Origin: a plasmid
DNA length: 64,000 bases
Sequence record: NZ_CP028352.1
Reading direction: 5' to 3' (one strand)
Both the position numbers and the translations under genes were made by a program. Below the pieces are notes generated by a model. It was not told the origin of the DNA, ran no database searches, and saw only the letters and a list, made by a program, of their open reading frames with translations. Below are positions 1,568 to 21,690 of the stretch, piece after piece. Each line of letters starts with the position of its first letter. The first letter of the stretch is position 1.

Positions 1568-2017
1568 ATGAAACCGGCAATCTATGCTGAGGGCCTGACG
1601 GTTTTGTGGCCAGCCCTTTTTTCGCCGCCTGTGAAAATCCCTTTATATGGCGAATACTGCCCCGCAGGCTTCCCTTCCCCTGCCCAAGATTACGTTGAAA
1701 AAGAACTCGATCTCAATGAGCTCTGTATTCGCAGAAGGGCGTCGACCTTCTTCGTCCGTGCCAGTGGTAACAGCATGCAGGATCTTGGCCTCTATGATGG
1801 CGATGTCATGGTGGTTGATCGCGCCGAAGAGGCCTCTCACGGTGATATCGTTATCGCAGAGGTTAACGGTGAATTCACCGTTAAGCGGCTGCAGCTTCGC
1901 CCGCGCCTTGCGTTACTGCCCATGAATCCGGCTTACGCCGTTATCTATCCGGAGGAACTGCAGCTGCTCGGCGTCGTCACCTGGTTCTTCAGCAGTACGC
2001 GTGCACGCGGGAGGTAA
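1568..2017 (+). CDS. umuD: UmuD/MucA/ImpA-like SOS mutagenesis protein (S24 peptidase, LexA-like).
   Basis: ASGNSMQDLGLYDGDVMVVD (Ser nucleophile motif) and EFTVKRLQL (Lys general base) align with UmuD. The stop is 3 nt before the umuC-like start. Confidence 0.85.
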   Translation: MKPAIYAEGLTVLWPALFSPPVKIPLYGEYCPAGFPSPAQDYVEKELDLNELCIRRRASTFFVRASGNSMQDLGLYDGDVMVVDRAEEASHGDIVIAEVNGEFTVKRLQLRPRLALLPMNPAYAVIYPEELQLLGVVTWFFSSTRARGR

Positions 2018-2026
2018 TCCTTGCAC

Positions 2027-3756: not shown

Positions 3757-4208
3757 TCTGGTTTCACAGCCATTTTCTTACGCACCCGGTAATGCTGGTC
3801 TTCCTCGATCGCTGCAGCTATCCAGCCCGAAGCAATATTCAGGTCGATATCCGCAGGCAGACTCTCTGACAGTCTGTCCAGATTTACACCAGGTGACAGC
3901 TTTAAGATGAGGGACGCAAAGCCGGCCCATTCCTCATTACTCACGGGGCGCCATCCTCGTCTGAGTATTAGGTCAAACGCGGCCAAAGCTGCCCACAAAG
4001 GAGGCTGTTTGCGTTTATTCCACTCACTAAGAGCAGCACCAGGTACAGCAAGTTCTCGCGAAATGATATTCAGATGTCGCGCATGTTCGGTCAATGTTCT
4101 GGCTGCTTCAGCTGCACTTTGATCTTCGTCTTTTGCCCATCTATGTACGATACTCCCGCGGAACTGGGCAGATAGCTGCTGAAAAGGTGTTAATGAGTAT
4201 GCTGGCAT
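3753..4208 (-). CDS. Hypothetical protein (151 aa) co-transcribed with parAB.
   Basis: ORF abutting the parB stop (ATGA-style overlap at 4208). No recognisable motif. Confidence 0.45.
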   Translation of the reverse strand: MPAYSLTPFQQLSAQFRGSIVHRWAKDEDQSAAEAARTLTEHARHLNIISRELAVPGAALSEWNKRKQPPLWAALAAFDLILRRGWRPVSNEEWAGFASLILKLSPGVNLDRLSESLPADIDLNIASGWIAAAIEEDQHYRVRKKMAVKPE

Positions 4209-5332
4209 TATTCAGACCTCAGGCCTAAGAACTCTACATCGCTGGCGCGCACGTATAGCTCACCTTCAGCGGTATTAAGCCATATAAAACCAAATTCATC
4301 GGGCATCTTATGAAGCAGGACAGTCACTTCAGTACCGTTGAACTTCACTACTGGAATTAAAGGGAGTGGTACATCAGCGGCCTGATACTGGTGTTTTTTA
4401 TTACTGGAAGAAGTACTACCAGATTCAGTAATGAGAGCTTTCGCATGCGAAATCTCAGTTTTATTATCTGGCTGCAGAACATCATCACCACTCTGAGATT
4501 TCGCATGCGAAACCTTAGTAGGTGCTTTACTCACATCACGCCCCTTCAACCGATCCAGTTCCTTTTTTACCTGTACCCGGGTCAAGGTGCTGCCAGCATT
4601 ATGCTTTTCTATCAGTCGGTCTGACGCACCTGAATCTATGTTGTCGATCTGAATCAGCGTGTAAGCAAGATCTACGTCAGAGATAGATTTGTTTTTCAGC
4701 AGGGCCTTTATCTTTTCAGGTGCAGAGCCAATACGGATATGTTTGCTGACAAAAGCTGTAGGCTTGCCGAGTGAGCGGGCGATTTCCTCTCCTGTCATAT
4801 TGAAGTCGGTTTTCAGCTGTTCAAAGGCCAGCGCGGTCGCCAAAGGCTTGAGCCCCGATTGCTGCAGGTTCTCGATAAGCTGCCCCATGATGCGCTGCTT
4901 TTCATCTTTCGGCGGCCGGCCGACGTAGATATCAATAAATTCATCACCGCGCTTTTTCATTGAGCGGATACGCGTAGCGCCAAACCATACGCGGTAGCCC
5001 TTACGGTCTTTCGGAAAACAGCGAGGCGGCGTCAGGTTCCCGAACTCACTGAACGACTCAACCATGCCGGAAATGACCTCCTCATCAAAGTCATCTTCCG
5101 GACGAACCTGCTCGACCTCATAAATCTCATCCGCTCTGACGCGCACGATCTGCCCCTCAGGCTCCAAACCGGGGCGGGCAATTTCTGCCCGAATCTTTGA
5201 CGCATCAGGCGTTCCGACTGGAGCTGGTGTATCACGGGCTGCGACACTGGCAGCAACTTCTGGCATTGCGCTTACGGACGGACCTGAAGTTTTAAGTGCG
5301 TTTAATTTCTTCTGGAATTTACTCGCAGCCAT
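4208..5332 (-). CDS. parB: ParB-family partition protein (centromere-binding, ParB/KorB-like).
   Basis: The ParB-like N-domain and HTH region (...FGATRIRSMKKRG...GEEIARSLGKPTAFVSKHIRIG) are translationally coupled to the upstream ParA gene. Confidence 0.8.
   Translation of the reverse strand: MAASKFQKKLNALKTSGPSVSAMPEVAASVAARDTPAPVGTPDASKIRAEIARPGLEPEGQIVRVRADEIYEVEQVRPEDDFDEEVISGMVESFSEFGNLTPPRCFPKDRKGYRVWFGATRIRSMKKRGDEFIDIYVGRPPKDEKQRIMGQLIENLQQSGLKPLATALAFEQLKTDFNMTGEEIARSLGKPTAFVSKHIRIGSAPEKIKALLKNKSISDVDLAYTLIQIDNIDSGASDRLIEKHNAGSTLTRVQVKKELDRLKGRDVSKAPTKVSHAKSQSGDDVLQPDNKTEISHAKALITESGSTSSSNKKHQYQAADVPLPLIPVVKFNGTEVTVLLHKMPDEFGFIWLNTAEGELYVRASDVEFLGLRSE
4439..4452. promoter_or_regulatory. 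parS-like palindrome, copy B (TTTCGCATGCGAAA), inside the parB coding sequence.
   Basis: 14-bp perfect core with matching flank on one side. Confidence 0.55.
4511..4526. promoter_or_regulatory. parS-like palindrome, copy C (GATTTCGCATGCGAAA), inside the parB coding sequence.
   Basis: 14-bp perfect core, 60 bp from copy B. Confidence 0.55.
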
Positions 5333-6192
5333 CAGTGACCTCCCTGCGTAAGTTCAACAATCTTGTTACTGAGTTCCTGATACTGCAGCGCCGGCTTGCT
5401 TGAAGGAGAATACTCTTTGATGGTCATGCCCAGCTCAATGGCTTCTTTGGCAAGATTTTTCACCCATGAAATATAAGCCAGAACCGTTTCCGGTCCGTAA
5501 TTCTTCTCGTGCAGAATGTCGAACAGACGCTGCAGGTTCTCTGTTTCTACAGCGGTCAGGTAGCCATCGAGGAGAGGCTGATTGTAGTTCTGAACATTCG
5601 CTTGGGTAATATAAGTACCCAGGTATTTAAGTTCGGGATTGTAATTTTTACGAATGCGTTGCATGTACGACAGCTGCTTCCCGACGCCAATACGTGATGA
5701 TTTCTCCAGAAGAGTTGGGATCAGCAGATAATCAGCAACAAGATGAGAGGCAATCAGAAGGTTGTTATATTCTGGCGCCGAGTCGATAAAGATGTAGTCG
5801 TAGTGCTTACGCAGCTCACTGATGCGCTCTTTAAAGTCGAAAATGCAGTCCTGAGGACGATAGTTAATTTCGTGCAGCTCGTTGGTCGATCCAATGATAT
5901 GTCGTCCGTCAGGCAGGACATGAGGTTTAACCTCCGTGTCAGGAAAGAATAACTGATAGGCATTGGCTTCGCCTGGAGAGAAGGTATTACCCAGTGGATC
6001 TTTATCAATGGAAAGCGGCAGAGCATCAGGAAAGGTCCTTTCCGTAAGCCCTGATGTGGTATCAAAATCAATCATGCAGGTCTGCATTCCCATGACCTGC
6101 AGATTATAAGTCAGCTCATTCGTTGACTGAGATTTGACGACGCCACCTTTTTGATTTCCAACAATGATGACAATTCCTGCTTTTGCTTCCAT
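5332..6192 (-). CDS. parA: ParA-family partition ATPase (deviant Walker A).
   Basis: MEAKAGIVIIVGNQKGGVVKS (KGGxxK[ST]). Start moved to the ATG at 6192 (GAGGA SD at -8). The ATG at 6216 lies inside the parS-like palindrome and is probably spurious. Confidence 0.85.
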   Translation of the reverse strand: MEAKAGIVIIVGNQKGGVVKSQSTNELTYNLQVMGMQTCMIDFDTTSGLTERTFPDALPLSIDKDPLGNTFSPGEANAYQLFFPDTEVKPHVLPDGRHIIGSTNELHEINYRPQDCIFDFKERISELRKHYDYIFIDSAPEYNNLLIASHLVADYLLIPTLLEKSSRIGVGKQLSYMQRIRKNYNPELKYLGTYITQANVQNYNQPLLDGYLTAVETENLQRLFDILHEKNYGPETVLAYISWVKNLAKEAIELGMTIKEYSPSSKPALQYQELSNKIVELTQGGH

Positions 6193-6207
6193 AGCTACAT
6201 CCTCAAG

Positions 6208-6223
6208 ATTTCGCATGCGAAAT
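6208..6223. promoter_or_regulatory. parS-like palindrome, copy D (ATTTCGCATGCGAAAT), immediately upstream of the parA start. Candidate centromere/operator.
   Basis: 16-bp perfect palindrome, 16 bp upstream of the ATG at 6192. Confidence 0.6.
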
Positions 6224-6283
6224 AATTGTGATGGCTCGTCGCTGACTGGAGTACTTCATTGGCTGAAGGGGATATGCTCCATT

Positions 6284-6386
6284 GAGTCTGGCGTTTCGCC
6301 GTAATGTCAGCCGGCTACCCGGTGACCAACTCAGTATGCCAGGCCTATGATAAAGAATCAATAATGATTCTTTATCATAGGCCTGG
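6284..6386. repeat. Left copy of a ~100-bp direct repeat, ending in a 48-bp palindrome (CCAGGCCTATGATAAAGAATCA-ATAA-TGATTCTTTATCATAGGCCTGG).
   Basis: Matching sequence GAGTCTGGC(G/T)TTTCGCC(G/T)TAATGT(C/T)A(G/T)CCGGCTA(C/A)CCGGT... occurs at 6284-6338 and 7441-7496. The palindrome arms are perfect 22-mers. Confidence 0.7.
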
Positions 6387-6477
6387 CATGTGACTTTTAA
6401 TCCATTACACCTACTGACTTCGGCTTTAAATGCTCACTGAATCGTGAACGTAGTTTACGAGATTCAGGGTACCTGAC

Positions 6478-6520
6478 ATAAAAAAACCCCCTGTCCGCTT
6501 TAACGAACAGGGGGTTTTAT
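6478..6520. terminator. Bidirectional intrinsic terminator (AAAAAAACCCCCTGT...ACAGGGGGTTTTAT).
   Basis: GC stem of 8 bp with an A-run on one side and a T-run on the other. Lies directly 3' of the mini-ORF at 6520-6600 (minus strand). Confidence 0.7.
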
Positions 6521-6600
6521 CAACGCATTACTTCAATCAAAAAGATAATCACGCTGAGGGCAACACGAATTGCCTTGAGTGTAGTGATTAACACTTCCAT
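6520..6600 (-). CDS. Candidate type I toxin-like small hydrophobic peptide (26 aa, MEVLITTLKAIRVALSVIIFLIEVMR).
   Basis: Strong SD AAGGAGGA 5 nt upstream of the ATG, a single predicted TM helix, and an intrinsic terminator immediately 3'. No larger ORF lies in this 1.3-kb noncoding region. Confidence 0.4.
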   Translation of the reverse strand: MEVLITTLKAIRVALSVIIFLIEVMR

Positions 6601-6632
6601 AACGTCCTCCTTTCATTCAAGGACATTGCAAG

Positions 6633-6668
6633 GCGCAGCCAGCCTGAGGTTTCCCGCTGCGCTTTTTT
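6633..6668 (+). terminator. Plus-strand intrinsic terminator (GCGCAGC-loop-GCTGCGC-TTTTTT).
   Basis: 7-bp GC stem followed by a T6 run, ~35 bp beyond the mini-ORF start. A possible end of an antisense RNA overlapping the mini-ORF 5' region. Confidence 0.55.
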
Positions 6669-7440
6669 CCGTGTTGCTGGTTTTACAGTGTACAGACAAC
6701 ACGTTCAGCTCTGTCCCGGTGAGGCTGCGTGCATCATGCCAGTGATGCGCCGGGTAATGTTTAATCTATGTGCTAATGCTATCAGTCCGCCTTGTAAGGA
6801 AGAGCCAGATTCGCTATTCTTTGCGACACAGTGTACAGACAACATGTTCAGTGAAGTCTGAGGAATGATGAAAGCGTTGCCACGCTTCTGTCATTCCGGA
6901 AAAAGGGATCAGCATGCCAGCTGGTCCTTTTTTTTTGCGTCAGCAGAACCTGACCTCATCCAACCTGCGAGCAATTACTACATGTAGTGGTTACTCGCAA
7001 AGCTAATCCACTACATGTGGATAGATATTAGTGATTTACGGCGAGTTGACAAGAGCAAAAAATGATGGGTGGAGGGGTTGTAATTCTTGCGAAATTTCTT
7101 AGCCCACGCCTTGTAAGGCCTGGCATCGTGTCAACCGGATCAAACTTTTTTTTCTTAATTTGATCGGGCGCGTGTTTTTTTTCAGGAATGGCCATCTAAG
7201 AGCCCCAAACGCATTGTGAGCGACGCATTTTTTTTACTGGTAGCTTCTCACTAAATTTCTTCGTTTAAACCCTTTAGGTGGCACTAAAGCGAAAATACGC
7301 GCAATGCCGAGCATTTTGGCTGAAGCTAAGCCCGCAGTTAGACCGGTAGCTATACGGTTTATTACGAATAAAGCTTATAAAAATTCTGCCCACACAAAGT
7401 CCCAAAACGTCAGACGTGACAATTTCATGGCATCCTGGTG

Positions 7441-7538
7441 AGTCTGGCTTTTCGCCTTAATGTTATCCGGCTAACCGGTAACACAGTGATCATGCCAGCC
7501 CGCATTAAGGAATCAATATTGATTCTTTAATGCGGGCT
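7441..7538. repeat. Right copy of the direct repeat, ending in a 42-bp palindrome (AGCCCGCATTAAGGAATCAAT|ATTGATTCTTTAATGCGGGCT, 1 mismatch).
   Basis: Same upstream repeat body. The palindromes share the core AAGAATCAATA(A/T)TGATTCTT. Confidence 0.7.
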
Positions 7539-7539
7539 A

Positions 7540-7555
7540 ATTTCGCATGCGAAAT
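7540..7555. promoter_or_regulatory. parS-like palindrome, copy E (ATTTCGCATGCGAAAT).
   Basis: 16-bp perfect palindrome abutting the right-hand long palindrome at 7497-7538. Confidence 0.55.
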
Positions 7556-7577
7556 GTTAAGTGTATAGCGACGAGAA

Positions 7578-8654
7578 TTAATCATCATCCCATGCCTCTC
7601 TGCTCCCGCCGCAGAAGTCACAGCCAAACGCAGCACTGAGGTCAGGAACTGATGAACTATTGTAGGTGCAATAATCGCATGTGCTCAGTGATTTATGCAG
7701 CGTCAGGCAGGCTGTACAGAGATAGTTTTTACCAAACTCACATACTGTATCGTATCCATCACAGTCTGCGCATCCAGCCGGGACAGGGCTAAATATGCTG
7801 TTCTTTGTGAAGGGTTCGGTACTTATAGCGTTATACCTATCCAGTTCGCATTTGCAGCGAGAGCAGCAAAATTCTTCACCGTCCGCATGCATGACGTTTA
7901 ATTGCTGACAGTTCGGACAAATGACTTCCATATGTGCCTCAGTGCGATCGCAGACACAACACTGTTCCTGATAGAACCGCATATCGGGAAGAGGCTGGCT
8001 GCGAATAACCGCATCCTGGCAACAGATTACACACCGAGTAACGGAACGATTAGCCTTAAGCTCTGCGGCGATCAGCGTCTGCACACTTTCATGGCGGAAC
8101 TTTGCCCCGGCATAAAACTCACTGCTGCGTAGCATTCTCGTTTCATCCGTCGCCAGCTTCGCTCGTAATTGCCAGCCAAACAGGGATGACCAGTCCTCGC
8201 GCATCAGCCGGTTCAGCGCGAACCATGCATCCGCCTGCTCTGTCAGTACTTGCCGTTGGTCTCCTTCGCTAAGCTCATTGTGATAAAAGTGGACGACACG
8301 GTTCCGATGATTTTTAACTTTATTAAAAAGGTCAGCTGTCTTTTTGCTTAGCGGCTTTTCCAACACGTCTCCCAGGCGAGCGCAGGCCTCGTCATAGGTC
8401 ACTGACTGGAAATCCCCTGCCAGATATTTCTTGCGCTCCATTTTTTTTCCTGAGCAGGCCAACGTCCAGTGCTCATGAACCAGAGGAACCTTCATCAGGA
8501 TCTCTACGGCAGTCCAGAAGCTGACAACAGAAAATTTAGCCTGCCGCGACTGAAGCTCCTCACGCGCCTTATTCAGAAAATCGAGCCCGTTGGTGATTAG
8601 CGCCTCCGTTTCGGCTGTGAGCTGCTGGCCTTGTTCATCAGATTCGTCGTGCAT
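7578..8654 (-). CDS. HEPN-motif protein with a C-terminal multi-CxxC zinc-ribbon region (358 aa). Candidate RNase / abortive-infection effector.
   Basis: KNHRNRVVHFYHN fits the HEPN R[N]xxxH (Rx4-6H) motif in a predicted helical N-domain. The C-terminal 160 aa carry >10 CxxC pairs (CVICCQ...CPNCQ...CSRCKC...CADCDG...CTAC...CDYC...CDFC). Confidence 0.5.
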   Translation of the reverse strand: MHDESDEQGQQLTAETEALITNGLDFLNKAREELQSRQAKFSVVSFWTAVEILMKVPLVHEHWTLACSGKKMERKKYLAGDFQSVTYDEACARLGDVLEKPLSKKTADLFNKVKNHRNRVVHFYHNELSEGDQRQVLTEQADAWFALNRLMREDWSSLFGWQLRAKLATDETRMLRSSEFYAGAKFRHESVQTLIAAELKANRSVTRCVICCQDAVIRSQPLPDMRFYQEQCCVCDRTEAHMEVICPNCQQLNVMHADGEEFCCSRCKCELDRYNAISTEPFTKNSIFSPVPAGCADCDGYDTVCEFGKNYLCTACLTLHKSLSTCDYCTYNSSSVPDLSAAFGCDFCGGSREAWDDD

Positions 8655-8758
8655 ATTTTTCCTTCACTTTATTTGCCCTAGCCAAGAGGGACGGCAGCGG
8701 AATTTAATCGATCCGGCCGGGCATTGTGATACCACGAAGCCCGCTGCCTTCCCTGAAC

Positions 8759-10018
8759 TTATTCCAGTTCTTTATCTATGTCCTGCTGCATCCTTTCAAG
8801 GATTTGCGCGTCAATATTCTGTGTGAATAGCTGAACCTGCTGGGCAAGCTCGGTTACTTCATTTTGCCCGGTGGGTAACAGCTCACCATCCTTGTTCCTG
8901 CCGTTACGATGCACGATGTCATGCCGGCGTTTAACTGCGGCGCCCAGTAAGGGCAGCGACGACGGCGGAAACTCCGTCAGTAGCGTTTTGCTGAATATGT
9001 TCTTAGCCGTGTCCATTTTATGGAGTGACATACCGTCAAGCGCATCTTTGATGTCCGTATCGATGCGTGAGAGCTGATCATACAAATCAGAAATGGTAAT
9101 TTTTTTATCTTTGAAGGGTTGATAGCTCTCAACAAACCGCTGTTTAACCGTAGGGCGTGAGAAAATTTCGCGCTTCAGGATGTCACCCAGGTAGGCCTCC
9201 ATGGCAGTAATGATGCTGGCATAGCACATACTCTGCAGTGAGTGATTTTTTGGCTGAGAAGATGACAGATCCAAGATATCCTGGATTGATGCGCGGCAAT
9301 TCTTATGCGGCCACGTTTCCATCTCCGATATCTCTGCAACATCTTCAAAATTATCTTCATCATCTTCATTCAACAGCTCAGCAACATTTAGTTCGCAGAG
9401 CGCGCCGTCAGGACATGACGCGAGAAAAGCCACCACAAACTGCTCCCAGTCAGGCCCTGGAAAATTAAATACTCCGGTTGAAGGATAGTTACTATAGGTA
9501 GGAACATAACTAAGCATTGCGTTGACCAGAGGATTCTCGCTGAGATCGCTCCACCACGGCCCGTCGGAGTAATGCTCTTTAGCAGAATTTTTCAGCTCTA
9601 CGGCTTCCGGAAAAGCGGCAATCCAGTCGCGTAATTCCGTCTCTTTTACCGCCTTTACAAACTTGCTATAAACACGCTTATGTAACCTAGCGCGACGATT
9701 TCCCGTACCGGCTACAGCATATTCATCAGATTGATCGTTCAGTCTGTCTATCTCATTCTGCATCGTGCTGAGCATCTTCATCAGGCTCAGATCAAAATAG
9801 CGGTCACATTCATCCAAATCGTAACCAGCATGTGCCATACGTTCACGAATTTTCGCAACAGTGGTACGAAATCCATAGAAAAGATTGTAGATATTGGCAG
9901 CCTCGCCGGGCTTGGACTCAATAATCCTGTCACACTTCCTGAAGAACCAGCGGTCATACCTAATAGTAAATTCATGCACTTCAACACCGGCAATTATGAT
10001 GCCTGTAAAAGATGACAT
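8759..10018 (-). CDS. Hypothetical protein with a C-terminal HEPN-like motif (419 aa).
   Basis: C-terminal LGAAVKRRHDIVHRNG (Rx4H) in a helical ~150-aa domain. Same strand as, and immediately upstream of, the 358-aa HEPN/zinc-ribbon gene. Confidence 0.45.
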   Translation of the reverse strand: MSSFTGIIIAGVEVHEFTIRYDRWFFRKCDRIIESKPGEAANIYNLFYGFRTTVAKIRERMAHAGYDLDECDRYFDLSLMKMLSTMQNEIDRLNDQSDEYAVAGTGNRRARLHKRVYSKFVKAVKETELRDWIAAFPEAVELKNSAKEHYSDGPWWSDLSENPLVNAMLSYVPTYSNYPSTGVFNFPGPDWEQFVVAFLASCPDGALCELNVAELLNEDDEDNFEDVAEISEMETWPHKNCRASIQDILDLSSSQPKNHSLQSMCYASIITAMEAYLGDILKREIFSRPTVKQRFVESYQPFKDKKITISDLYDQLSRIDTDIKDALDGMSLHKMDTAKNIFSKTLLTEFPPSSLPLLGAAVKRRHDIVHRNGRNKDGELLPTGQNEVTELAQQVQLFTQNIDAQILERMQQDIDKELE

Positions 10019-10039
10019 ACATTTAATCCTTTATATGGT

Positions 10040-10792
10040 TTAAGGCAGCATGCGCAGCAGTTGCAGAGACGCTTCGGTGTCCAGGCTGAAGCGAACCTGA
10101 TGACTGGCAGCCACGTCCAGGGCAAACACCTTCGTATAAACTTCGGTTGATTCAAACTTCTCATGCCCCAGCAGTGACTGCAGCACCTTCGGCGGCACGT
10201 GGTGATAGAGCATGTGCATCGCGAAACTGTGACGGAACGTATGGGGAGAGATTTCAATGCTGAACCGCACGCCGGCACGGGCAGCTGCATTGATGGCGCG
10301 GTTTATCCAGTTCCTCACCGTGCGATCGGAGACGGTCCAGACCGGCAGAGCGCGGCGCTCGCCGGTATCACTGTCGGTCTCAAATTCTTCCCTGACGCTG
10401 GCGAACAGCCGGCGCATCTCATCAACGTAAGCCGGATCGGAAAGCGGCACAACACGGTTGGGACTGGTTCCTCTTCTTGGACGTCCGCTGCCGGCGCGCC
10501 GCTGCTTAGCCGTGCGGATCACCACGTGCGGGATGGCGTCGTTCAGGCGAAAGTCACGCCGCCGCAGCGCCAGGACTTCATTGAGACGTCCGCCGGTGTT
10601 CCATAAAGTATTGACCAGCGCATGCTGGGTCCAGTCCGGTATATGGTGAAGCAGGCCGGTGATCTCAGGTGCCAGTAAGTAACGGGGCAGCTCGGTGTAT
10701 GCGGCGGCCATGGACCGCAGCGCGAGCGCACGACCAAAATCGGGCTGTGCAGCTGGCAGCGCGACCTGAGTATTGACGGATGGTAGCGACAT
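10040..10792 (-). CDS. resD: Tyrosine site-specific recombinase, ResD/XerD-like (plasmid multimer resolution).
   Basis: C-terminal catalytic residues HTFRHSFA...LLGHEKFESTEVYTKV (R-H-R-Y). 250 aa, typical for plasmid resolvases of the integrase family. Confidence 0.7.
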   Translation of the reverse strand: MSLPSVNTQVALPAAQPDFGRALALRSMAAAYTELPRYLLAPEITGLLHHIPDWTQHALVNTLWNTGGRLNEVLALRRRDFRLNDAIPHVVIRTAKQRRAGSGRPRRGTSPNRVVPLSDPAYVDEMRRLFASVREEFETDSDTGERRALPVWTVSDRTVRNWINRAINAAARAGVRFSIEISPHTFRHSFAMHMLYHHVPPKVLQSLLGHEKFESTEVYTKVFALDVAASHQVRFSLDTEASLQLLRMLP

Positions 10793-11265
10793 AAACCCTC
10801 TAAAAAAATGACAGCGCTATGCAAAATCTGGCGGGATTTACCCCTGCTGCTTTCTCAGATTTCACACAGCGACGTCAGCTCCTAATCTGCCCATTTTCCA
10901 CTGTCTGACGGGGCCAGACCACCGGAAAAATCCGCTGAGTGGTCCTGCTTCATTTTCCGACTTCCGGATATATACCATAAAACGGAACAAAACAGCAGGC
11001 GGGGGATGGGCAGGGCAGATCCTGAAAAGATCCGGTTATGCCTGGATAAGGGGACCAGTGTGGTGATCGGACACCGTATGTTGTGGTCCCGGCCCTGAAT
11101 CGCCTCCTGACGCGGGGTTTCCGGTTATTACAGAAAACGGAAAGCGTGAACCTGAGAAATGGAACGCAGGTGATCACTAAGATAATTCTTAACAGCTTAC
11201 TGCGATCTGAGTAAAAATTGCGCTACTATAGGGCAATACCGCTAATCAGGGATAAGGAGAGAAGA

Positions 11266-13467
11266 ATGGCTGTGCTTACTATCAGGGGTGTCAGGAGTTA
11301 CGGTGCCGACAGAGACGTCCAAATAGATCTCAGCAACAAAGTTACACTGATTTATGGTCAGAATGGGTCGGGAAAATCAACTATCTCAAATTATTTTTCT
11401 GGATATTATCCGGAAAAGTACCGCCAGTGCCGTTTTGAAAGTCAGGTAGAATTGTTTCCGCTTGTATTCAATCAGGATTATATCGAAAGAAAATTTAGTC
11501 TTGAGAACGTTCAGGCAGGAATTTTCACACTCAGCGAGCACAATAAAGATATTCAGGAACAGGTTGAGAGTCATAAAAAAAGAATCGCTCGAACAGATGC
11601 AAAGGTAAGCGAACTTAACATTGAAATCGCCGGGCGGGCGGAAATGGAGTTGACCCTAATAAATAACTGCGCAGCCAGAATGTTTAAAAGGACATCCGCT
11701 GACCGGACTCGATTCACGTCTTTTCTTACAGGAGCGAAGCAGCAGAGAAATTTCTATGAACGAATAAATGATATTCCCCTCACAGTCGCACAACTGAACA
11801 CGGAGGAACTATCTGCCCGTCTCGAAAACCTGCAGAAAAGCAAAGGAACAAGTTTACCTTATATCAACATTAGCCTCCCAACACAGCTAAATCCTGATGT
11901 GATCCGGCTAATTCGTTCACCGCTTCAGCCCGCGTCGGGGACGCTATTTGCCGGGTTTATTGCAAATCTGGGAAATGCCGACTGGGTCAGAGAGGGGGTT
12001 CGATTTATTCATGACGATGTCTGCCCTTTTTGTCAGAACTCATTTGATGCAGCCCATTTTGCCGAAGAAATAGCAAGGATGTATGACAAAAGTTACACCG
12101 ACGCGATCGAAGTAATAAAAAAGGCAGCGGTAGAAGTAGCGGAAAATATTGAATATCTCAATGATCTATCGGAGAGAGTTTTCAGACACCCCGCGGTAAA
12201 CGAAGGTGCAGAAGTTCTCAGCTCACTCAAGTTACTTATTCAGATAAATCAGTCAAACCTTCAGACAATATTCAAGAAAATCGAAAGACCTTCTGAGATA
12301 TACGATGTGGCTGAAATTTCTGAAGCACGCAACAGCCTCATCAGCAACATAGATAAGATAAACAATACCGTTTCTGCTAACAACCAGCTGGCCGATAACT
12401 ACGATGCCGAAATGGCGAAGTTAAAGGCTGATGTCGACACGTATCTGCGCCAGATTTGCGACGAGTATCTTGTGGCACTTACGACTGAACTTCAGGAAGT
12501 CAGGGCTCAGAAAATAAAAGCCGAGCAACAAGCCTCAGCTCTTTTGACTGAAAGAAGGCAGCTCGGGGAGCAAACGTCACGACTTATAGGGCAACTTTCA
12601 GTCATTCAACCTACCATTGATTCCATCAATAATAATTTGAAAGCATTGGGCGTAACGGACTTCCATATATGCTGCCATGACGAGAAGATGAAACTTTACC
12701 GGCTCAGACGTACAAGCGATCCAGGAGAACGGGATGTATTCAGAACGCTGAGTGAGGGTGAAAAAACCATCATTGCGCTGCTCTATTTTATCGAATCCTG
12801 CACCGGCAGTGTTACGCCTGATGCCGTCCACGATGGCCGGAAGATAATAATTATTGATGATCCGATATCCAGCCTCTCACATAATTACATTTATGAAGTA
12901 GCCTCGCTGATAAAAAGAAAAATTATTAAACATGACATAGCCCGCCATCTGATAATCCTTACTCATAACCTGTTTTTCTTTCAGGAAATTTTGCTGACGT
13001 CAGTTAGAAGGCTGGAGAGTAAACTTGATGCCCCTAAAGGCTGGTCACTGCTACGTATTATCAAAAATGAGCACAGCGACTGTATCCCTTTATCCATGCA
13101 CGAAATGCTTAACGAGTATCAGGCTCTCTGGCAGACGCTCAAAGACGTGCAGGACAACAAGAGTCAGGTTATTGTGCTGCCAAATACGATGAGGAATATT
13201 CTCGAATACTATTTCAGCTTTGCCTGTAAAGAAGAAAAGCTGGAAAAAACGCTTGCCGCTCTGGCTTCAGAGCACGCCGAGGGCTGTTATGATTCGTTCT
13301 ATCGGGCAATAAACAGACATTCTCATTCAGATGGCAGAAACATTCTTTCTACAGGCATTATGGATAAAAGCGAATATTTCAGGCTTTTCAGAAAGATATT
13401 TGAAGAAATGGGTGAACTGGCTCATTACTGCTCAATGATGGACGAAAAACTGGAGGAAGTGATTTAA
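11266..13467 (+). CDS. AAA_13/ABC-type ATPase with a CxxC 'zinc-hook' and coiled-coil, RloC/PrrC-like (candidate anticodon-nuclease defence protein).
   Basis: Walker A IYGQNGSGKSTIS, D-loop IIIIDDPISSL and H-loop ILTHN. CPFCQ lies before a long coiled-coil segment. The C-terminal region has MRNILEYYF (R-x3-E) followed by EH/RH residues, as in the PrrC/RloC nuclease triad. Start chosen at MAVLTIRG with an AAGGAGAG SD. Confidence 0.55.
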   Translation: MAVLTIRGVRSYGADRDVQIDLSNKVTLIYGQNGSGKSTISNYFSGYYPEKYRQCRFESQVELFPLVFNQDYIERKFSLENVQAGIFTLSEHNKDIQEQVESHKKRIARTDAKVSELNIEIAGRAEMELTLINNCAARMFKRTSADRTRFTSFLTGAKQQRNFYERINDIPLTVAQLNTEELSARLENLQKSKGTSLPYINISLPTQLNPDVIRLIRSPLQPASGTLFAGFIANLGNADWVREGVRFIHDDVCPFCQNSFDAAHFAEEIARMYDKSYTDAIEVIKKAAVEVAENIEYLNDLSERVFRHPAVNEGAEVLSSLKLLIQINQSNLQTIFKKIERPSEIYDVAEISEARNSLISNIDKINNTVSANNQLADNYDAEMAKLKADVDTYLRQICDEYLVALTTELQEVRAQKIKAEQQASALLTERRQLGEQTSRLIGQLSVIQPTIDSINNNLKALGVTDFHICCHDEKMKLYRLRRTSDPGERDVFRTLSEGEKTIIALLYFIESCTGSVTPDAVHDGRKIIIIDDPISSLSHNYIYEVASLIKRKIIKHDIARHLIILTHNLFFFQEILLTSVRRLESKLDAPKGWSLLRIIKNEHSDCIPLSMHEMLNEYQALWQTLKDVQDNKSQVIVLPNTMRNILEYYFSFACKEEKLEKTLAALASEHAEGCYDSFYRAINRHSHSDGRNILSTGIMDKSEYFRLFRKIFEEMGELAHYCSMMDEKLEEVI

Positions 13468-14156
13468 TTCTGACTTTGGTTTGAGGCATCATCACCTGCG
13501 GGCACCATTCACTTAACGATTCGGGAGCGAGCGCATGTGCTTACGCACATGTTCTACGCGCCCGAAACGAAAACGTGTATACCGGATAACCGGAACAATT
13601 TTCGGTTTCATGAGGCTTTCCTTTTACAAACCGGCTACTGCCGGAAGTCCCTGTACCCATTACAGGCTGGTAATGATCCAGAGGAGAACGCCCGAGGTGA
13701 CGATGTGACTATCATACAAAAAATGGCACCAGGTGTCATAATCTTCATGCATTTTTTACACCAAAAATCTCACAGAAGTTCGGCTAGTGCTGTTTTCAAG
13801 TTCCGACTTTGACGGAAAACGGAAAAGCGGATTTCTCTAAAGTGATAATGAATGAAAAAAAACCAATCGGGAAAAATTTCGGATGAGTCGTAGATAAGCA
13901 GGTTAGTATCAGCCTGAGGTTTAAAGATTATCTGCAGCCGGAGGCAGTATTAAGGATTTGATATCCAATTCTCACTCTGTTAGGTTATCAGGCACATCAC
14001 TACTCAGTGATGTTAGCTCATCTAGATAGACATTAATTCGTTTACACATGGGCATATTACTTTTTGTAGTACATTCTCAATTAATCATATACCATTAACA
14101 ATATTATGGCTTAAGTGTTTTGCCAATATTTAATCATACTAAAAAAGGAGTTACCG

Positions 14157-15317
14157 ATGCCAAACAATTGCAATTACTTATATTTAGAAGACGAAGTGTC
14201 AAATTGCCATTCCTTCATATTTCACATGGAAATTGCATCTTATTTATCTGTTACAGAATATGCTAGACAATCCGGAGGGAACATTGACGGGCAACGCCCT
14301 GTACTAAAATCACAAAGTGCTCGAATAATAAGAGACCAGATGACTGCCGACTTTAGAAACGGAGGGGTTTTACCTCCGGTAGTAATAGGCATGGTTGATC
14401 CTAATTTCAATTTAAGCTCCATAAAAACACCAGATGATATCTATAAATACATTGATACTAACAGAAAGGTACTTTGCATTATTGATGGAATGCAAAGAAC
14501 AGAAGCTATGATTAATGCAGGAGTTACTGCGCCCAGAAATGTTAGGGTCGAGCTTTGGTTGGTTGAATCATTAAATAAGTTGATTTATAGGATGCTCGTT
14601 TTAAATACAGGACAAGTACCCTGGACAATGCAAAAACAACTAGAAGTTGTAATGAATCCTGTCATAAAAACAATTCAAAGCAAAATACCAGGCATTGAAT
14701 TACCCACTACTGAAGATGCACAAAGAAGAACACAGGCAGGTAAGTACCAAGCAAGTAAAATCATTGAATCATTTTTAGTGTTTGGAGCGCGTTCAGAAAA
14801 AATAAATACCCGTGATTCGATCGCTGAAGAATATGCAAAGTTGGATTTTATAGAATCCTCATCAAAACAAGAACTATTAGACACTTATATTGATTTCCTT
14901 CGTAGAATTTATGAACTTGATGTCCAGCTTTGTAGAATTAATAAAGATAACTCAACTAGTGGAAAATTCAAAAAAGGTTCCGATATTTTAGGAAGCCAAC
15001 CTGCATTAATAGGGATTACAACAGCATTTGCTATAAAAATCCTTGGCCGGCCTAAATTGGACTTATCTGCAGAACAGCAAAACAAGAACAAGATAAGTAT
15101 ACTTTCAAATTTTGATCGATTTATTGTGCGTCTTGAATCAATGAATGAGCAAGAATTAACGGAATTCGTAAACTTAGAGGCGCTAAATTCAATGAGTCCA
15201 TCATCAGCTTCTACTAAGGTTGGTGACCAAGAAAGACAATTCTTTAAGGGGGCGTTTAATGTCTTGCTTGAGGATGAATTTAATGTTCCGAATATGGATG
15301 TATGTTGGGGTCACTAA
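14157..15317 (+). CDS. DGQHR-domain protein (DndB/ParB-nuclease-like superfamily), 386 aa, in AT-rich DNA.
   Basis: Motif VLCIIDGMQRTEAMI (DGxQR). AAGGAG SD 8 nt upstream of MPNNCNY. GC content is far below the flanking DNA, which indicates a foreign origin. Confidence 0.5.
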   Translation: MPNNCNYLYLEDEVSNCHSFIFHMEIASYLSVTEYARQSGGNIDGQRPVLKSQSARIIRDQMTADFRNGGVLPPVVIGMVDPNFNLSSIKTPDDIYKYIDTNRKVLCIIDGMQRTEAMINAGVTAPRNVRVELWLVESLNKLIYRMLVLNTGQVPWTMQKQLEVVMNPVIKTIQSKIPGIELPTTEDAQRRTQAGKYQASKIIESFLVFGARSEKINTRDSIAEEYAKLDFIESSSKQELLDTYIDFLRRIYELDVQLCRINKDNSTSGKFKKGSDILGSQPALIGITTAFAIKILGRPKLDLSAEQQNKNKISILSNFDRFIVRLESMNEQELTEFVNLEALNSMSPSSASTKVGDQERQFFKGAFNVLLEDEFNVPNMDVCWGH

Positions 15318-15318
15318 A

Positions 15319-16572
15319 ATGCATGAACATATTGAAGCATGTAGCTCTATAGCTAACTTACTAAATTTCAAACACTTTTACTCTGCTGAACAAGAAAGTA
15401 GAAGCATGACTAAAAGAAATCAAGTATTATTTGATAGTTTGAAAAACCTGTCTGAAGAAAACGGTTTTAACAAAAAGGAATATCCCTATCATGAAAAAAT
15501 ATGCATAGCAACAAATGATTCTGAAAAAGATTGGCTTAAAAATATCTCCTCCAGTGAAAAGGTATGTGCTGCTGATTTTGAAATAGTTAATGTTGGAAAT
15601 TGTTTTTCTGTATCCTACTTTTACTATTCCAGTGAAAAATACTTAATTGTTTCTGGCTTGAATGATGTATCCCTTGATGAGGGATTTGAATTTGAAGCGA
15701 TAAATTCAGGGGTTTTTACTTTATTTTCATCATTAAACTTAATCAAGTTTAAAAACATTAGCAATAATATAAGCAAAGTATATAACGAAATACTTAACAA
15801 AGATCCAGATTTAGCCGACCCTAAATTTGTGGATTTGAATAATATAATTAGTTATTTCGAGCCTACATATATATGCAAAATTAATAAAGAAGCTATATTC
15901 TATGAATTACAATTAGACCGTATAGCGGCTTATATTACAATGGCAATCACAAAAGATAACTACCCGACTGATATCCCTGTATTTAGTTTAATTAAAGATC
16001 TAATAATAACAGGAGAGCGTAGTATTAATTTCTCATATCTAGCTAAAGCAATATTTATTAAGGATGAGCCTTATTTGCTTTTTATGGAACTTTACAGAAT
16101 GCTGGAGAGAATATATGCAATTCCAACCATAAAAGCTCTTAAACATGAGTTGTGCATTGGAATGGATAGCCATTGGGAAATTATAAGCTCAATAGAAAAA
16201 ACCACTGGGTGGCGAAAGAAAGAGAACGAAGGGCTATATACACTACTATCACAATTAGAATACTCAATTCTTAATGACGCCTACAACACCTTGAATAAAA
16301 ACCATGGGGATTATTTCAACAATAGCTTAGTCATTAAAAAGCAAAAATTATTGCAAGATCTTGATATTAAGAGTGAATCTTATTCAAGTGCTTGCAGGGA
16401 GCTGGAAGAAGCTATAAAAGTTTGCCTTAGAGATTATATATATAAAACAAGAAATTCTTATGTGCATTATAGAGAGGCTTTAGAATCACAACTGGATCAG
16501 GGAAAAATACATTCTCTATGCGAGTCTTTATTAATGATAATTAATCCTATATATGTGAAGTTGGGAGTATGA
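15319..16572 (+). CDS. Hypothetical protein (417 aa) translationally coupled to the DGQHR gene; a possible C-terminal HEPN-like RNxxxH motif.
   Basis: The start is 2 nt after the upstream stop. IYKTRNSYVHYRE lies near the C-terminus. Very AT-rich. No other recognisable motif. Confidence 0.45.
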   Translation: MHEHIEACSSIANLLNFKHFYSAEQESRSMTKRNQVLFDSLKNLSEENGFNKKEYPYHEKICIATNDSEKDWLKNISSSEKVCAADFEIVNVGNCFSVSYFYYSSEKYLIVSGLNDVSLDEGFEFEAINSGVFTLFSSLNLIKFKNISNNISKVYNEILNKDPDLADPKFVDLNNIISYFEPTYICKINKEAIFYELQLDRIAAYITMAITKDNYPTDIPVFSLIKDLIITGERSINFSYLAKAIFIKDEPYLLFMELYRMLERIYAIPTIKALKHELCIGMDSHWEIISSIEKTTGWRKKENEGLYTLLSQLEYSILNDAYNTLNKNHGDYFNNSLVIKKQKLLQDLDIKSESYSSACRELEEAIKVCLRDYIYKTRNSYVHYREALESQLDQGKIHSLCESLLMIINPIYVKLGV

Positions 16573-16776
16573 TTTTAAAGCATATTTCATATATTGTGAT
16601 TATATCCCTGATTAAAACTAGCCTTTGTTAGTAACATTCGCATGTTGTACGTTTAAAACGTTTAGCGACTCCAGAAACAAAGGCCCCCCATGAGCGAGTT
16701 ATGTACTTTAACTTAAGGAATTTTCCGTTTAAATAGGTTGTCCGTGAAGCCCGCTTTGCATAAAAAGGAGATCAAC

Positions 16777-18105
16777 ATGGCCATGAAACTCATTAAAAAG
16801 AAGGCCCCGCGTGGTGCCCTGAAAAGCTGGTTATCTGAGGATGAAGAAGCTGCCGTTAAGAACTTCTTCGGTCGCAAGCAGGTATGCAATGCGCAGGAAC
16901 GTGCACTAGCGGAGAACGTGATTCATGAAATGCGCGAGAAGGAGCTCTGGCTGCATTGCAGCTGCGTGGGTGGCGATACGCCAGCACTGAACAATGCCAA
17001 ACTGAGATCTGAAACCCAAACGTTGTTTCTGTCCGGGTTTGGCCATAGCCACGACCCATCCTGTCCCATGCACAGGGTCTTTAAGGGTGACGAGGATACT
17101 ACCGGTTCAGGAACCCGTAAAAACGCTGGGAGCAAGCGATTAAACTATCGTGATTTTTTACCAAAAGATGAGTCAGAGACGACTATTAAGGCGCCAGGCA
17201 GCGCAGGATTTACTGGTCAGGATAGAACCAGGCGAAAACGCCGGCCACGAGTTGCACGTTTGCTTCTGACGCTGATTGAAGATGCCGGGCTGAATACTTT
17301 CAGCCCGATCAGCCCGCTGCCTAATCGGGCACCCAGAACATGGCTTGCCGCTCTCGCAGCCTCGGCAGATGCTCAGGAATTTGTGCGCGGGCGCAGGCTT
17401 TCGGAAATCGTACGGTTTCAGCCGACCATGGGCGAGTTTGCCCAGGAAAAATTAATGCTTGAACTGGAACGTACGGATGCCAACTGGCCGGCAGGAAAAG
17501 CCCGGGTGTTTTATCAGATATTTATGTCGGAGCTGGTCAGCCGTGAACATGTTACGTTCGCCTGGAAAGATGGGGAACGCAGGTTTTCTCCGGAGAAGGG
17601 TGTCAGCATCAATGGGGAATCACAGGAAGGCGTGAGGCCGCCTTACTGGGTCATACTGGCCTTCAAACGCTCAGCTGAAGGTAGCGTGATATGCAGCGAA
17701 GGGTATGCGCACGCACTATTCAGACGTAACTGCCCTGTCCCGGTAGACAGTGACCTTGAGAGGCAGACGATGGAAGGTATTGCTGAAGTGGCCAGCTGGC
17801 TTAAAGGCGGAGCAGACGTACTCACCCTCATAAAACCCCTGTTTGATATTGAGGTAGAGATGGAGGGGGAGAAAGGCTTTGTGCTGCCGGATTTTATTAT
17901 TCAGGCCAAATTGCCGGATGGCCGGGAACATGCCGTAGTGGTAGAGACGATGGGATATACCGATGATGAGTACTGCGAACGTAAAGCCGAACAGCATAAA
18001 GGGATGCGCACACTTGGAACCCTTCAGACGGATCCTCCGCGCTGGCCACATGAAGTCACTAAGCCTTTTACCAACCATTTGTATGGTGTAATCAAAAATC
18101 TATAA
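16777..18105 (+). CDS. Hypothetical Cys/His-cluster protein (442 aa) with a possible nuclease-like C-terminal domain.
   Basis: AAGGAG SD before MAMKLIKKK. HCSCVGG...HSHDPSCPMH metal-binding-like cluster. C-terminal GFVLPDFII...AVVVETMGYTDDEY resembles PD-(D/E)xK-type signatures, but this cannot be confirmed by eye. Confidence 0.4.
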   Translation: MAMKLIKKKAPRGALKSWLSEDEEAAVKNFFGRKQVCNAQERALAENVIHEMREKELWLHCSCVGGDTPALNNAKLRSETQTLFLSGFGHSHDPSCPMHRVFKGDEDTTGSGTRKNAGSKRLNYRDFLPKDESETTIKAPGSAGFTGQDRTRRKRRPRVARLLLTLIEDAGLNTFSPISPLPNRAPRTWLAALAASADAQEFVRGRRLSEIVRFQPTMGEFAQEKLMLELERTDANWPAGKARVFYQIFMSELVSREHVTFAWKDGERRFSPEKGVSINGESQEGVRPPYWVILAFKRSAEGSVICSEGYAHALFRRNCPVPVDSDLERQTMEGIAEVASWLKGGADVLTLIKPLFDIEVEMEGEKGFVLPDFIIQAKLPDGREHAVVVETMGYTDDEYCERKAEQHKGMRTLGTLQTDPPRWPHEVTKPFTNHLYGVIKNL

Positions 18106-18571
18106 AGATTACCGGATGCTCTTCTGGCGGCTGTAACAGGCCGCAACTGCCTTATAACGAGATTTGCTTATCGGCAAAAGTGCATGACCCATACGTACAT
18201 AGTCCCGCAACACACAGTATGACAATCACTATCACACCTGACGAGAACCCATTAAATCACTATTTTTTATCCAGCCAAAATGGCTGGGAGAAATTGCTAT
18301 AAAAATATCTATTTCAGTTTTCATATTTCTCTATCTCATCATTAAAATCGCTGGCATTATCGCACCCATAAATAAAGACTTCCGATATTACATCTGCATA
18401 GACATTTATAATGACTCTGTTCTTTTTTATCCCCCCCCGGCAGACATCCACAAAGAAACAGATAATTTATTTTTACTTGTTGCGTTTCATTTAACCAATC
18501 AAAAATAAAATCATTCGCTTTTATTCTTCCCTTACAAATAATATACTATACGCTTTCTTTTTCATTACATA

Positions 18572-20657: not shown

Positions 20658-21690
20658 TCACTTAATAGATGGGATATCTTTCAGCCGCGTAGTGTAACGC
20701 GGTGACAACATTTCACGCTTCATCTGCCAGGCACTGTCACGTTCACCCTGACCGGCGAACCATACCTTTCCCTTACCTGAGCGGTTAATGGTGTCCAGTG
20801 CAGCCATCAGCGCATCAGCATTTGCACGCGGCTGCTGCTCGCTGAACATGTCGAATTGCGCGACCCCAGACTGATAAAAATCACCCAGCATGACGCCCGC
20901 TTTAGCGTACCGGTAGCCTTCAAGCCAGATAGTGCTGAGTCCGCGGAGCGCTGACTCAATAATGTCGCGCGTATCATTCGTCGGATAATCGCAGATGCGC
21001 GAGGCGGTATTCGAATACTGTGGCTCATCGCCATGCCGGCCCGTTGCGATGGATACACTGATATGACGGCAGCGCGAATTCTGCTCCCTAAGTTTTTCCG
21101 CCGCACGTGTGGCATACAGCACGATTGCCTGCTGCATATCTTCCAGTTTTGTGACTCTTTCGCCAAATGATCGCGAGTTTAGGATGTGCTGCTTTGGCGG
21201 CGGGGCATCTTCCAGTGCAATACAGGACTCACCATTAAGCTCGCGAGTAGTACGCTCAACGATAACGTCAAAATTTTTCCGTATCATGCTGATGTTGCTG
21301 TCAGCCAGCTGCAGAGCCGTGGTGATCCCAAGCTGGTACATGCGCTTAGTAATGCGCGGCCCAATACCCCAGATATCGCTGACGTCGGTCAGGTCCAGTA
21401 GTTTTCGCTGACGGGTTCGGCTGGACAGGTCTACCACACCCATTGTCTGGGTCCATTTCTTCGCGGCATGGTTAGCCAATTTGGCCAGCGTTTTCGTTGG
21501 GCCGAATCCTACGCCGATAATTAACCCGGTTTCCTTCCGGATGCGCTCTCGCATCTGCTGTCCGAAAGTTTCTAGAGGGATCAGGCTATCGATCCCTGTG
21601 ACGTCAAGAAACGACTCATCAATGGAGTAAACCTCCTGACCTGCGGCCATTTCGCCCAGTATGGCCATCATGCGCGCTGACATGTCGCCA
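20658..21690 (-). pseudogene. umuC: 3' fragment of a second umuC-like gene (lacks the first ~80 codons), cut at the left end of the inserted element.
   Basis: Translation ...GDMSARMMAILGEMAAGQEVYSIDESFLDVTG... aligns from UmuC residue ~80 to the C-terminus. The missing N-terminus is found at 32675-32904 on the same strand. Confidence 0.8.

Follow-up and report, generated by a model that had tools for sequence, protein, structure and literature searches.

A probable divergent Dazbog-family gene pair, dzbA-dzbB, in a variable slot of a Pantoea agglomerans-group conjugative plasmid

The subject of this analysis is a two-gene cassette at positions 14157-16572 of a window of 64,000 nucleotides (nt) from a plasmid (sequence record NZ_CP028352.1). 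From matches to the PADLOC models of both Dazbog proteins, motifs common to the cassette and the canonical pair, and a profile alignment of the second protein with canonical DzbB, we conclude with high confidence that the cassette is a divergent member of the Dazbog family. It thus belongs to a system first described by Millman et al. (2022) and is not a new one, as a prediction made from the sequence alone had supposed when it did not recognise any named system here. More broadly, we consider it probable that a Dazbog-family dzbA-dzbB pair occupies a variable, integrase-associated slot of a Pantoea agglomerans-group conjugative plasmid and works by the mechanism proposed below. This carries little weight as a discovery, since Dazbog was named in 2022 and is already catalogued in several species, including genomes of Escherichia coli, Erwinia amylovora and Stenotrophomonas maltophilia. 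Of most use are the predictions of catalytic residues in DzbB and the question which of the two proteins is the toxic one.

Layout of the cassette and its assignment to Dazbog

The features of the cassette are as follows (aa, amino acids; GC, guanine plus cytosine fraction).

13826-14156, + strand: AT-rich upstream spacer, presumed to bear the promoter; homology edge, GC 0.34
14145-14150, + strand: ribosome-binding site AAGGAG, 6 nt upstream of the dzbA ATG, read from the sequence
14157-15317, + strand: dzbA (gene 1), ATG at 14157 to TAA at 15315-15317, 386 aa
14478-14510, + strand: motif IIDGMQRTEAM in dzbA, translation confirmed
14484-14498, + strand: DGMQR motif of DzbA (D110-R114), translation confirmed; counterpart of DGQQR in GmrSD/BrxU and of DGQHR in DndB
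15315-15321, + strand: dzbA/dzbB stop-start junction TAAAATG, one base between stop and ATG, read from the sequence
15319-16572, + strand: dzbB (gene 2), ATG at 15319 to TGA at 16570-16572, 417 aa, long form
16078-16116, + strand: LFMELYRMLERIY helix of DzbB, which holds Y259 and E263, translation confirmed
16438-16470, + strand: motif IYKTRNSYVHY in dzbB, translation confirmed
16450-16467, + strand: RNSYVH (R378-N379-x3-H383) of DzbB, putative HEPN Rx4H active-site motif, translation confirmed

The list of open reading frames (ORFs) and our reading of the sequence agree on two tightly packed + strand genes, 14157-15317 and 15319-16572. GC content per kilobase (kb) drops to 0.346 (14-15 kb) and 0.317 (15-16 kb), whereas most of the remaining window has approximately 0.43-0.66; by element it is 0.36 for dzbA and 0.31 for dzbB. 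The description of an AT-rich two-gene cassette was therefore borne out, well beyond what chance would give, as was the placement of both motifs and the start of gene 2 on the second nucleotide after the stop of gene 1. The TAAAATG junction is compatible with translational coupling. A drop in GC had been placed at 13.5-16.6 kb; the drop itself is real, but its left edge is not at 13.5 kb, as homology to enterobacterial and Pantoea plasmids and to Pantoea septica stops at approximately 13825-13833 and sets the edge at about 13826. Horizontal acquisition of a two-gene defence module, also part of the original prediction, is supported.

Both ORFs are real genes under purifying selection, because the ratio of nonsynonymous to synonymous substitution rates (dN/dS) against the P. 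septica alleles is low (0.07 for dzbA and 0.14 for dzbB) and each has many homologues. Antisense and overlapping ORFs within the cassette are all of 69 aa or fewer and lack support. A consensus promoter scan gave no + strand site upstream of dzbA, with fewer promoter-like sites than in shuffled sequence; terminator-like sites equalled the shuffle expectation, and the same consensus approach placed none at the flanks of the dzbAB operon. The Rfam scan of 13400-17000 returned no match, and no convincing direct or inverted repeats or tRNA that would mark a mobile cassette were seen at its flanks.

Gene 1 matches the PADLOC DzbA model PDLC03835 over nearly its full length (E 1.5e-51, 174 bits, profile positions 8-382 of 393), and a word-indexed search returned at least 1,887 homologues. 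Gene 2 matches the DzbB model PDLC03836 in its C-terminal half only (E 5.8e-07, 27 bits). For comparison, the canonical pair from a B. cereus plasmid gives 5.3e-120 for DzbA and 3.8e-48 for DzbB. The Dazbog systems of Bacillus cereus and B. mycoides (Millman et al. 2022; Stokar-Avihail et al. 2022) have the same two-gene, same-strand architecture as the window, and B. cereus DzbA and the window DzbA (~390 aa) both carry QR, DGMQRT, RVE, YRMxxLNxGQxP and a C-terminal CW. The two differ in that DzbA identity to the canonical Bacillus clade is only ~23%, the window has a long-form DzbB (417 aa) and the host is a Pantoea plasmid, whereas the tested systems are from Bacillus. The window copy is a member of a large clade, Gram-negative and cyanobacterial, that stands far from the Bacillus clade in which the tests were done. 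The PADLOC models of Menshen and PD-T4-2, defence systems which like Dazbog combine a DUF262-type protein without DUF1524 with a separate effector gene, did not match the window proteins; DzbA and DzbB were the only ones of these to match.

Gene 1 had been read as a DGQHR/DndB-type, ParB nuclease-like protein. Its membership of the ParB/Srx superfamily and its kinship with sensors of modified DNA stand; the DGQHR/DndB assignment does not. The window DzbA has no match at E <= 0.1 to Pfam DndB, TIGR03187 or TIGR03233 (Pfam and NCBIfam searches), nor to ParBc, and no Pfam HTH_ParB or KorB domain match. Among 20 diverse DzbA relatives, GmrSD_N (DUF262, PF03235) was matched by 16 (best E 5.7e-07), compared with weak matches to DndB in 5 (best 1.8e-04) and to TIGR03187 in 6 (best 4.3e-05). 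Many DzbA homologues also carry a precomputed PF03235 annotation, and one UniRef homologue entry is named 'DGQHR domain protein'. Since the GmrSD_N matches are more frequent and stronger, the family leans towards DUF262 rather than DndB within the ParB/Srx superfamily, on scores that are modest but consistent.

In its predicted fold DzbA comes nearest to BrxU, ParB and sulfiredoxin, with BrxU, a type IV enzyme, as the closest structural neighbour; the protein comprises an N-terminal, DUF262-like ParB/Srx-fold domain (~residues 1-160) followed by a C-terminal helical domain. A search by sequence for relatives of solved structure gave SusD as the sole match (E 0.07), which we rejected as spurious. 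Residues D110, G111, M112, Q113, R114 and T115 are invariant in the 20 homologues, as are G45-Q46-R47, R130, E132 and Y144-W156 except T151 and V154. Because DGMQR is invariant in the homologues and kept in B. cereus DzbA, it is the hallmark of the family, distinct from DGQQR of GmrSD and DGQHR of DndB. DndB/DGQHR proteins (TIGR03187, PF14072) have D-G-x-x-R at the equivalent place, but the His of DGQHR is replaced in DzbA and the conserved partner is a different one. In other DUF262 proteins the equivalent motif is required for nucleotide hydrolysis and defence.

The DzbB partner and its candidate active site

Close relatives of gene 2 are few: just 9 clusters among 5.8 billion proteins, all annotated as hypothetical, and the word-indexed homologue search with the DzbB alignment found nothing beyond them. 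An exhaustive search with a profile built from these 9 clusters reached 373 cluster representatives at E <= 1e-3. For synteny we sampled 80 loci with DzbA relatives from 80 species of Cyanobacteria, Bacteroidota, Bacillota, Actinomycetota, Proteobacteria and others. A same-strand ORF abuts or overlaps the end of dzbA in 72 of the 76 loci with sufficient downstream sequence, and the gene 2 profile matches 71 of these 72 ORFs, mostly at E < 1e-10. The pair is thus syntenic across phyla, and it recurs in contexts as unrelated as the Pantoea plasmid and a Vibrio integrase island. Of the two outcomes named beforehand as refuting the prediction, a gene 1 that fails DGQHR/ParB-nuclease profiles and a pair that lacks synteny elsewhere, neither applies in full. 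Departures from the pairing are ORFs cut by contig ends, ORFs split by frameshifts and three orphan DzbA genes. The genes downstream of the orphans (RhuM, UvrA and a metallo-beta-lactamase-fold protein) were considered as alternative effectors and rejected as unrelated genes next to orphan DzbA copies.

Two further results tie gene 2 to DzbB. Comparison by hhalign of a 49-member DzbB alignment with canonical B. cereus DzbB gave a probability of 86.8% (E 4.3e-06), with LY..E and RNxxVH in register. Pairwise identities of the A and B proteins correlate over 66 loci at r = 0.91, a value reached in none of 2000 Mantel permutations; of the two, DzbB is by far the faster to diverge (mean identity 25% vs 43% for DzbA). 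From synteny, the alignment with the canonical protein and co-evolution, we identify gene 2 as the DzbB partner and DzbA and DzbB as an obligate pair.

The spacing between E302 and R378 is 75 residues in the window DzbB vs ~41 in the common 350-aa form, so that the window protein is a long form with an extra insertion of ~35 residues ahead of the Rx4H helix. Frameshifted or truncated DzbB genes were seen in several (six) loci. Judged from these sequences, decay of DzbB does occur, which sits oddly with the toxicity reported for ΔdzbB.

Gene 2 had been described as having no recognisable domain and ending in a HEPN-like motif. The first holds at curated thresholds: the sole Pfam match of the window DzbB is a sub-threshold one to HEPN_Apea (17.9 bits against a cut-off of 24.4, residues 355-408). 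The second is reinforced by the family alignment. In 49 diverse DzbB proteins (mean column identity 22%) only Y259, E263, R378, N379 and H383 are invariant, with W298, E302, Y375, V382 and R385 near-invariant, and Y259 and E263 align with canonical Bacillus DzbB. RNxx[V/A]H is found in ~60 of the 72 downstream partners of DzbA homologues. In this form R378-N379-x3-H383 looks like the Rx4-6H signature of HEPN RNases (Anantharaman et al. 2013). Near the C-terminus of an all-alpha domain, HEPN toxins (ApeA-like, RiboL-PSP-HEPN, PrrC/RloC and Cas13) carry R-[N/H]-x3-H as DzbB does, although RNase activity of DzbB is putative.

A betaproteobacterial DzbB subgroup (five loci) matches the gene 2 profile weakly and has RH[S/A]L[V/I/A/T]HQ where RNxxVH is otherwise seen, so that N is exchanged for H at unchanged Rx4H spacing.

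The AlphaFold 2 model of DzbB (mean predicted local distance difference test score, pLDDT, 80.6) consists of an N-terminal alpha/beta part (~30-190) and an all-alpha C-terminal part (~199-415), in which a long helix ends with R378 and N379 and a break modelled at low confidence contains H383. Across the 49 members, 8 match HEPN_Apea (best E 3.5e-04), 1 matches RiboL-PSP-HEPN and 1 matches Cas13a models; no competing family recurs, and none of the HEPN matches reaches its curated threshold. Profile support for HEPN is therefore weak but one-directional. A search for DzbB relatives of solved structure by sequence gave RbcX alone (E 1.4), which is spurious. Two other relationships were tried and rejected. 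The HEPN family 'MAE_28990', described in 2013 comparative work in an operon with ParB and methylase genes, is not supported as an equivalent of DzbB, as Pfam HEPN_MAE_28990 matched none of the 49 members at E <= 0.01; a relationship to the neighbouring RiboL-PSP-HEPN protein of the plasmid received a probability of 0.1% in a profile comparison. The same 2013 work drew attention to HEPN genes that share an operon with ParB-like genes, and the portions of the Dazbog literature available to us draw no link between DzbB and HEPN. Taking this together, we put the chance that DzbB is a HEPN-RNase effector at about even. Y259, E263, R378, N379 and H383 of DzbB, along with DGMQRT of DzbA, offer precise targets for mutagenesis.

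Proposed mechanism and competing explanations

In Bacillus, Dazbog behaves as an abortive-infection system, and cultures infected at high multiplicity collapse or cease to grow; it is toxic upon expression of the cytosine methylase of phage SPR, and escaper phages lose CCGG methylation (Stokar-Avihail et al. 2022). DUF262, known also from GmrSD and SspE, is encoded by the first of the two genes (Stokar-Avihail et al. 2022), and reviews report that removal of this gene abolishes defence. The mechanism is called unclear in papers up to 2026.

Against this background, the most likely scheme, of which parts are shown, is a DzbA sensor acting on a HEPN-like DzbB effector. DzbA and DzbB are made from one operon as an obligate pair, the step that synteny and co-evolution show directly. 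The DUF262-like ParB/Srx domain of DzbA, with its DGMQRT motif, would then recognise base-modified phage DNA, for example 5-methylcytosine, and recognition would probably be coupled to binding or hydrolysis of nucleoside triphosphates, by analogy with Bacillus Dazbog, GmrSD, BrxU and SspE. Recognition would release an activity of DzbB that involves Y...E and R-N-x3-H, as motif conservation and the weak profile matches suggest. Cleavage of RNA, the presumed target, would lead to growth arrest and aborted infection, a phenotype established for the Bacillus homologue only. The sensor-plus-effector logic proposed from the sequence essentially agrees with the published working hypothesis for Dazbog; the polarity, with DzbB as the effector, is called into question by the failure to obtain ΔdzbB transformants.

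Joined with the neighbourhood of the genes, this scheme extends to a reading in which DzbB is a divergent, previously unrecognised HEPN-type RNase (active site Y259/E263/R378/N379/H383) under a DUF262 NTPase that reads methylated DNA, the long form outside the tested clade has perhaps a different trigger, and methylase neighbours serve specificity tuning. We hold this extended version tentatively, at slightly under an even chance. If it is true, Dazbog would be a modification-sensing, RNA-targeting abortive-infection system; the long-form DzbB of the Gram-negative and cyanobacterial clade may differ in trigger specificity from the Bacillus systems; and the recurring C5-cytosine methylase neighbours would imply tuning against self-triggering.

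Several points weigh against the sensor-effector scheme. All experiments were done on Bacillus homologues, whose DzbA is ~23% identical to the window protein. The PADLOC DzbB match of gene 2 is weak and partial, the window DzbA itself has no direct match to DUF262 (PF03235) at E <= 0.1, any more than to DndB or DGQHR, and fold searches with DzbB did not confirm a HEPN fold. A further objection comes from a deletion strain. The genes psyrA, shosA and rmrA are the antitoxin genes of their systems. ΔdzbB was not transformable, 'possibly due to toxicity' (Millman et al. 2022), and the same list names ΔpsyrA, ΔshosA and ΔrmrA, whose genes belong to two-gene systems which Millman et al. call toxin-antitoxin. 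Because it stands in the company of presumed antitoxin-gene deletions, the ΔdzbB result points to DzbA being harmful without DzbB, a misfit with a simple sensor-to-effector scheme. This conflict with the intuitive model makes the identity of the toxic partner the key question.

In view of the deletion result we keep as a rival, with Dazbog identity unchanged, a reversed polarity, in which DzbA, with its NTPase or nuclease potential, would be the toxic effector and DzbB would restrain or regulate it like an antitoxin, R-N-x3-H serving nucleic-acid binding or a second activity. Such a role for DzbA would fit the description of ParB-like domains as DNases in comparative analyses, and the fold searches gave no sign that DzbB is an RNase. 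However, in GmrSD, BrxU and SspE it is DUF262 that acts as NTPase and sensor while a separate domain cuts the DNA; invariance in DzbB is confined to a Y/E/R/N/H set that looks catalytic, which a pure antitoxin would not usually have; and toxicity as the cause of the failed ΔdzbB transformation is the authors' conjecture. We judge this reversal unlikely, though it deserves to be taken seriously.

An improbable reading is that DzbAB cleaves or nicks modified phage DNA in the manner of the type IV systems GmrSD, BrxU and SspE, without abortive infection or RNA cleavage. BrxU as the nearest structural neighbour of DzbA, triggering of Bacillus Dazbog by DNA methylation and the placement of Dazbog among restriction-modification-related systems in a review are what this reading would explain. 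GmrSD, BrxU and SspE (DUF262 plus DUF1524) do have a role in sensing modified DNA, as is proposed for DzbA, but they possess a DUF1524/HNH nuclease, and no DUF1524/HNH or other recognisable DNase domain was found in DzbA or DzbB, nor a DUF1524 match in their relatives. Their motif is DGQQR rather than DGMQR, and the partner activity in the window lies on a separate protein with a HEPN-like motif. Collapse or arrest at high multiplicity and toxicity on expression of the methylase alone are, moreover, abortive-infection behaviour.

We see very little room for a role in plasmid maintenance or addiction instead of phage defence, whether as a ParB-like accessory to partition or as a toxin-antitoxin pair that stabilises the plasmid. 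The pair does sit on a plasmid, ~8 kb from parAB, and a pair that is toxic when unbalanced, as ΔdzbB might indicate, could stabilise it. But a genuine ParA/ParB-KorB pair is present at 4208-6216 and DzbA has no HTH_ParB/KorB match; most homologous pairs are on large contigs or complete chromosomes in defence-like contexts; a PLSDB search found a DzbA relative on only 11 of 72,556 plasmids and this DzbB on none; and phage defence was shown experimentally for the Bacillus homologue.

Finally, that gene 1 is an orphan DGQHR/DndB-type protein from a Dnd/Ssp phosphorothioation system, paired with a new effector, is close to negligible: the weak TIGR03187 and DndB matches among its relatives and the single UniRef entry name are outweighed by the commoner and stronger GmrSD_N matches, the invariant DGMQR form of the motif, the lack of any such match for the window protein and a full-length PADLOC DzbA match that explains the whole protein, and, as originally predicted, no dnd, ssp or pgl genes accompany it (none in Pfam for ten neighbouring ORFs, and none in PADLOC/NCBIfam for six of them).

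The plasmid slot around dzbAB

The window comes from a conjugative plasmid of the Pantoea agglomerans group. The 18 kb at its right-hand end (46-64 kb) match P. agglomerans MPF_I plasmids at 97%, the adjoining stretch from ~29.5 kb at 92%, and the cargo stretch at 21.7-34 kb matches other Pantoea plasmids at 99%. The neighbours of dzbAB are listed below; the remaining content of the window (plasmid cargo and conjugation genes) is known by annotation transfer only.

1568-3301, + strand: umuDC, an intact umuD-umuC pair
4208-6216: parB/korB and parA
7578-8654, - strand: ORF of 358 aa without a Pfam match, between parA and the HEPN/Toprim gene
8759-10018, - strand: 419-aa protein with HEPN/Toprim-NTD domain 1 and RiboL-PSP-HEPN, C-terminal RRHDIVHRNG
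10040-10792, - strand: tyrosine recombinase, 250 aa, directly adjoining the HEPN/Toprim gene
11218-13467, + strand: AAA_13 ABC-type ATPase, 749 aa, PADLOC candidate PDC-S06 (E 8.8e-233)
16738-18105, + strand: ORF of ~442 aa, probable start ATG at 16777, GC 0.53, no family assignment
downstream of the ~442-aa ORF: acyltransferase
20658-21683, - strand: second umuC copy, 5'-truncated by ~74 codons (IMS domain from profile position 75)

Comparison with related Pantoea plasmids, namely that of P. agglomerans CFBP8774 and that of P. septica, delimits ~6300-18500, from parAB to the acyltransferase and umuC, as a variable cargo slot. In the CFBP8774 plasmid the set of HEPN/Toprim, PDC-S06 and Dazbog genes between parAB and the acyltransferase is replaced by an integrase, a RES-domain protein, IS630, a kinase and a restriction endonuclease. 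In the window, dzbAB is accompanied by other defence-type genes, the PDC-S06/PrrC-like ATPase and the HEPN/Toprim protein, and by an integrase.

The slot has a mosaic history. The left flank is 93% identical on P. septica plasmid contigs, yet identity falls to 78.5% across dzbAB, and the 340 bp that precede dzbA (13826-14165) do not align to the P. septica allele. Over 10052-16899, synonymous divergence (dS) from P. septica is low in the AAA_13 gene (0.064) but far higher in dzbA and dzbB (0.83-1.2) and in the integrase (0.72). So strong a mosaic indicates allelic replacement or recombination of whole genes between plasmids. Because dS is high in dzbAB and low in the adjacent ATPase gene, the Dazbog alleles which the window and the P. 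septica plasmids have at this position are old and divergent. As an example of a slot for defence cargo on conjugative plasmids of Pantoea, in which such alleles lie between near-identical flanks, the locus is relevant to plasmid-borne phage resistance in plant-associated bacteria.

Cytosine methylases recur near dzbA, which is notable for a system reportedly triggered by cytosine methylation. As a raw count, 8 of the 80 loci have a C5-cytosine methyltransferase gene within 6 kb of dzbA. On the B. cereus plasmid with the canonical pair, dcm and an NgoPII-type endonuclease are near dzbA, and in Vibrio vulnificus, source of the closest non-Pantoea pair, an MvaI/BcnI-type endonuclease and a C5 methylase immediately precede the pair within the integrase island. 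These two cases come in addition to the 80 sampled loci, with the genes at 6063-7721 of locus L086 and 1-461 of locus L088. Searches of phage genomes gave no match to DzbA.

The 749-aa AAA_13 ATPase resembles RloC/PrrC-type anticodon nucleases in sequence: its C-terminal part matches PrrC (E 8e-16, residues 510-739), a CPFC motif (DDVCPFCQ) lies within the ATPase region and RHSHSDGRN near the C-terminus. The gene with ~360 bp downstream is ~90% identical on Enterobacter, Salmonella, E. coli and Pantoea ananatis plasmids. The HEPN/Toprim-RiboL-PSP-HEPN protein may be another defence or toxin gene; PADLOC holds no model for it. It is found together with the recombinase also in P. septica and Pantoea sp. 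JZ29 plasmids, and a 351-aa gene takes the position of the 7578-8654 ORF in P. septica.

To the right of dzbB, the ~442-aa ORF gives only faint C-terminal matches, to DUF790 and to the BPTD_3080 restriction-endonuclease model. P. septica keeps just its first ~120 bases (the alignment ends at 16899), and because only these survive there, we do not count the ORF as part of Dazbog. Further right, the truncated second umuC suggests that the variable region was remodelled at this edge.

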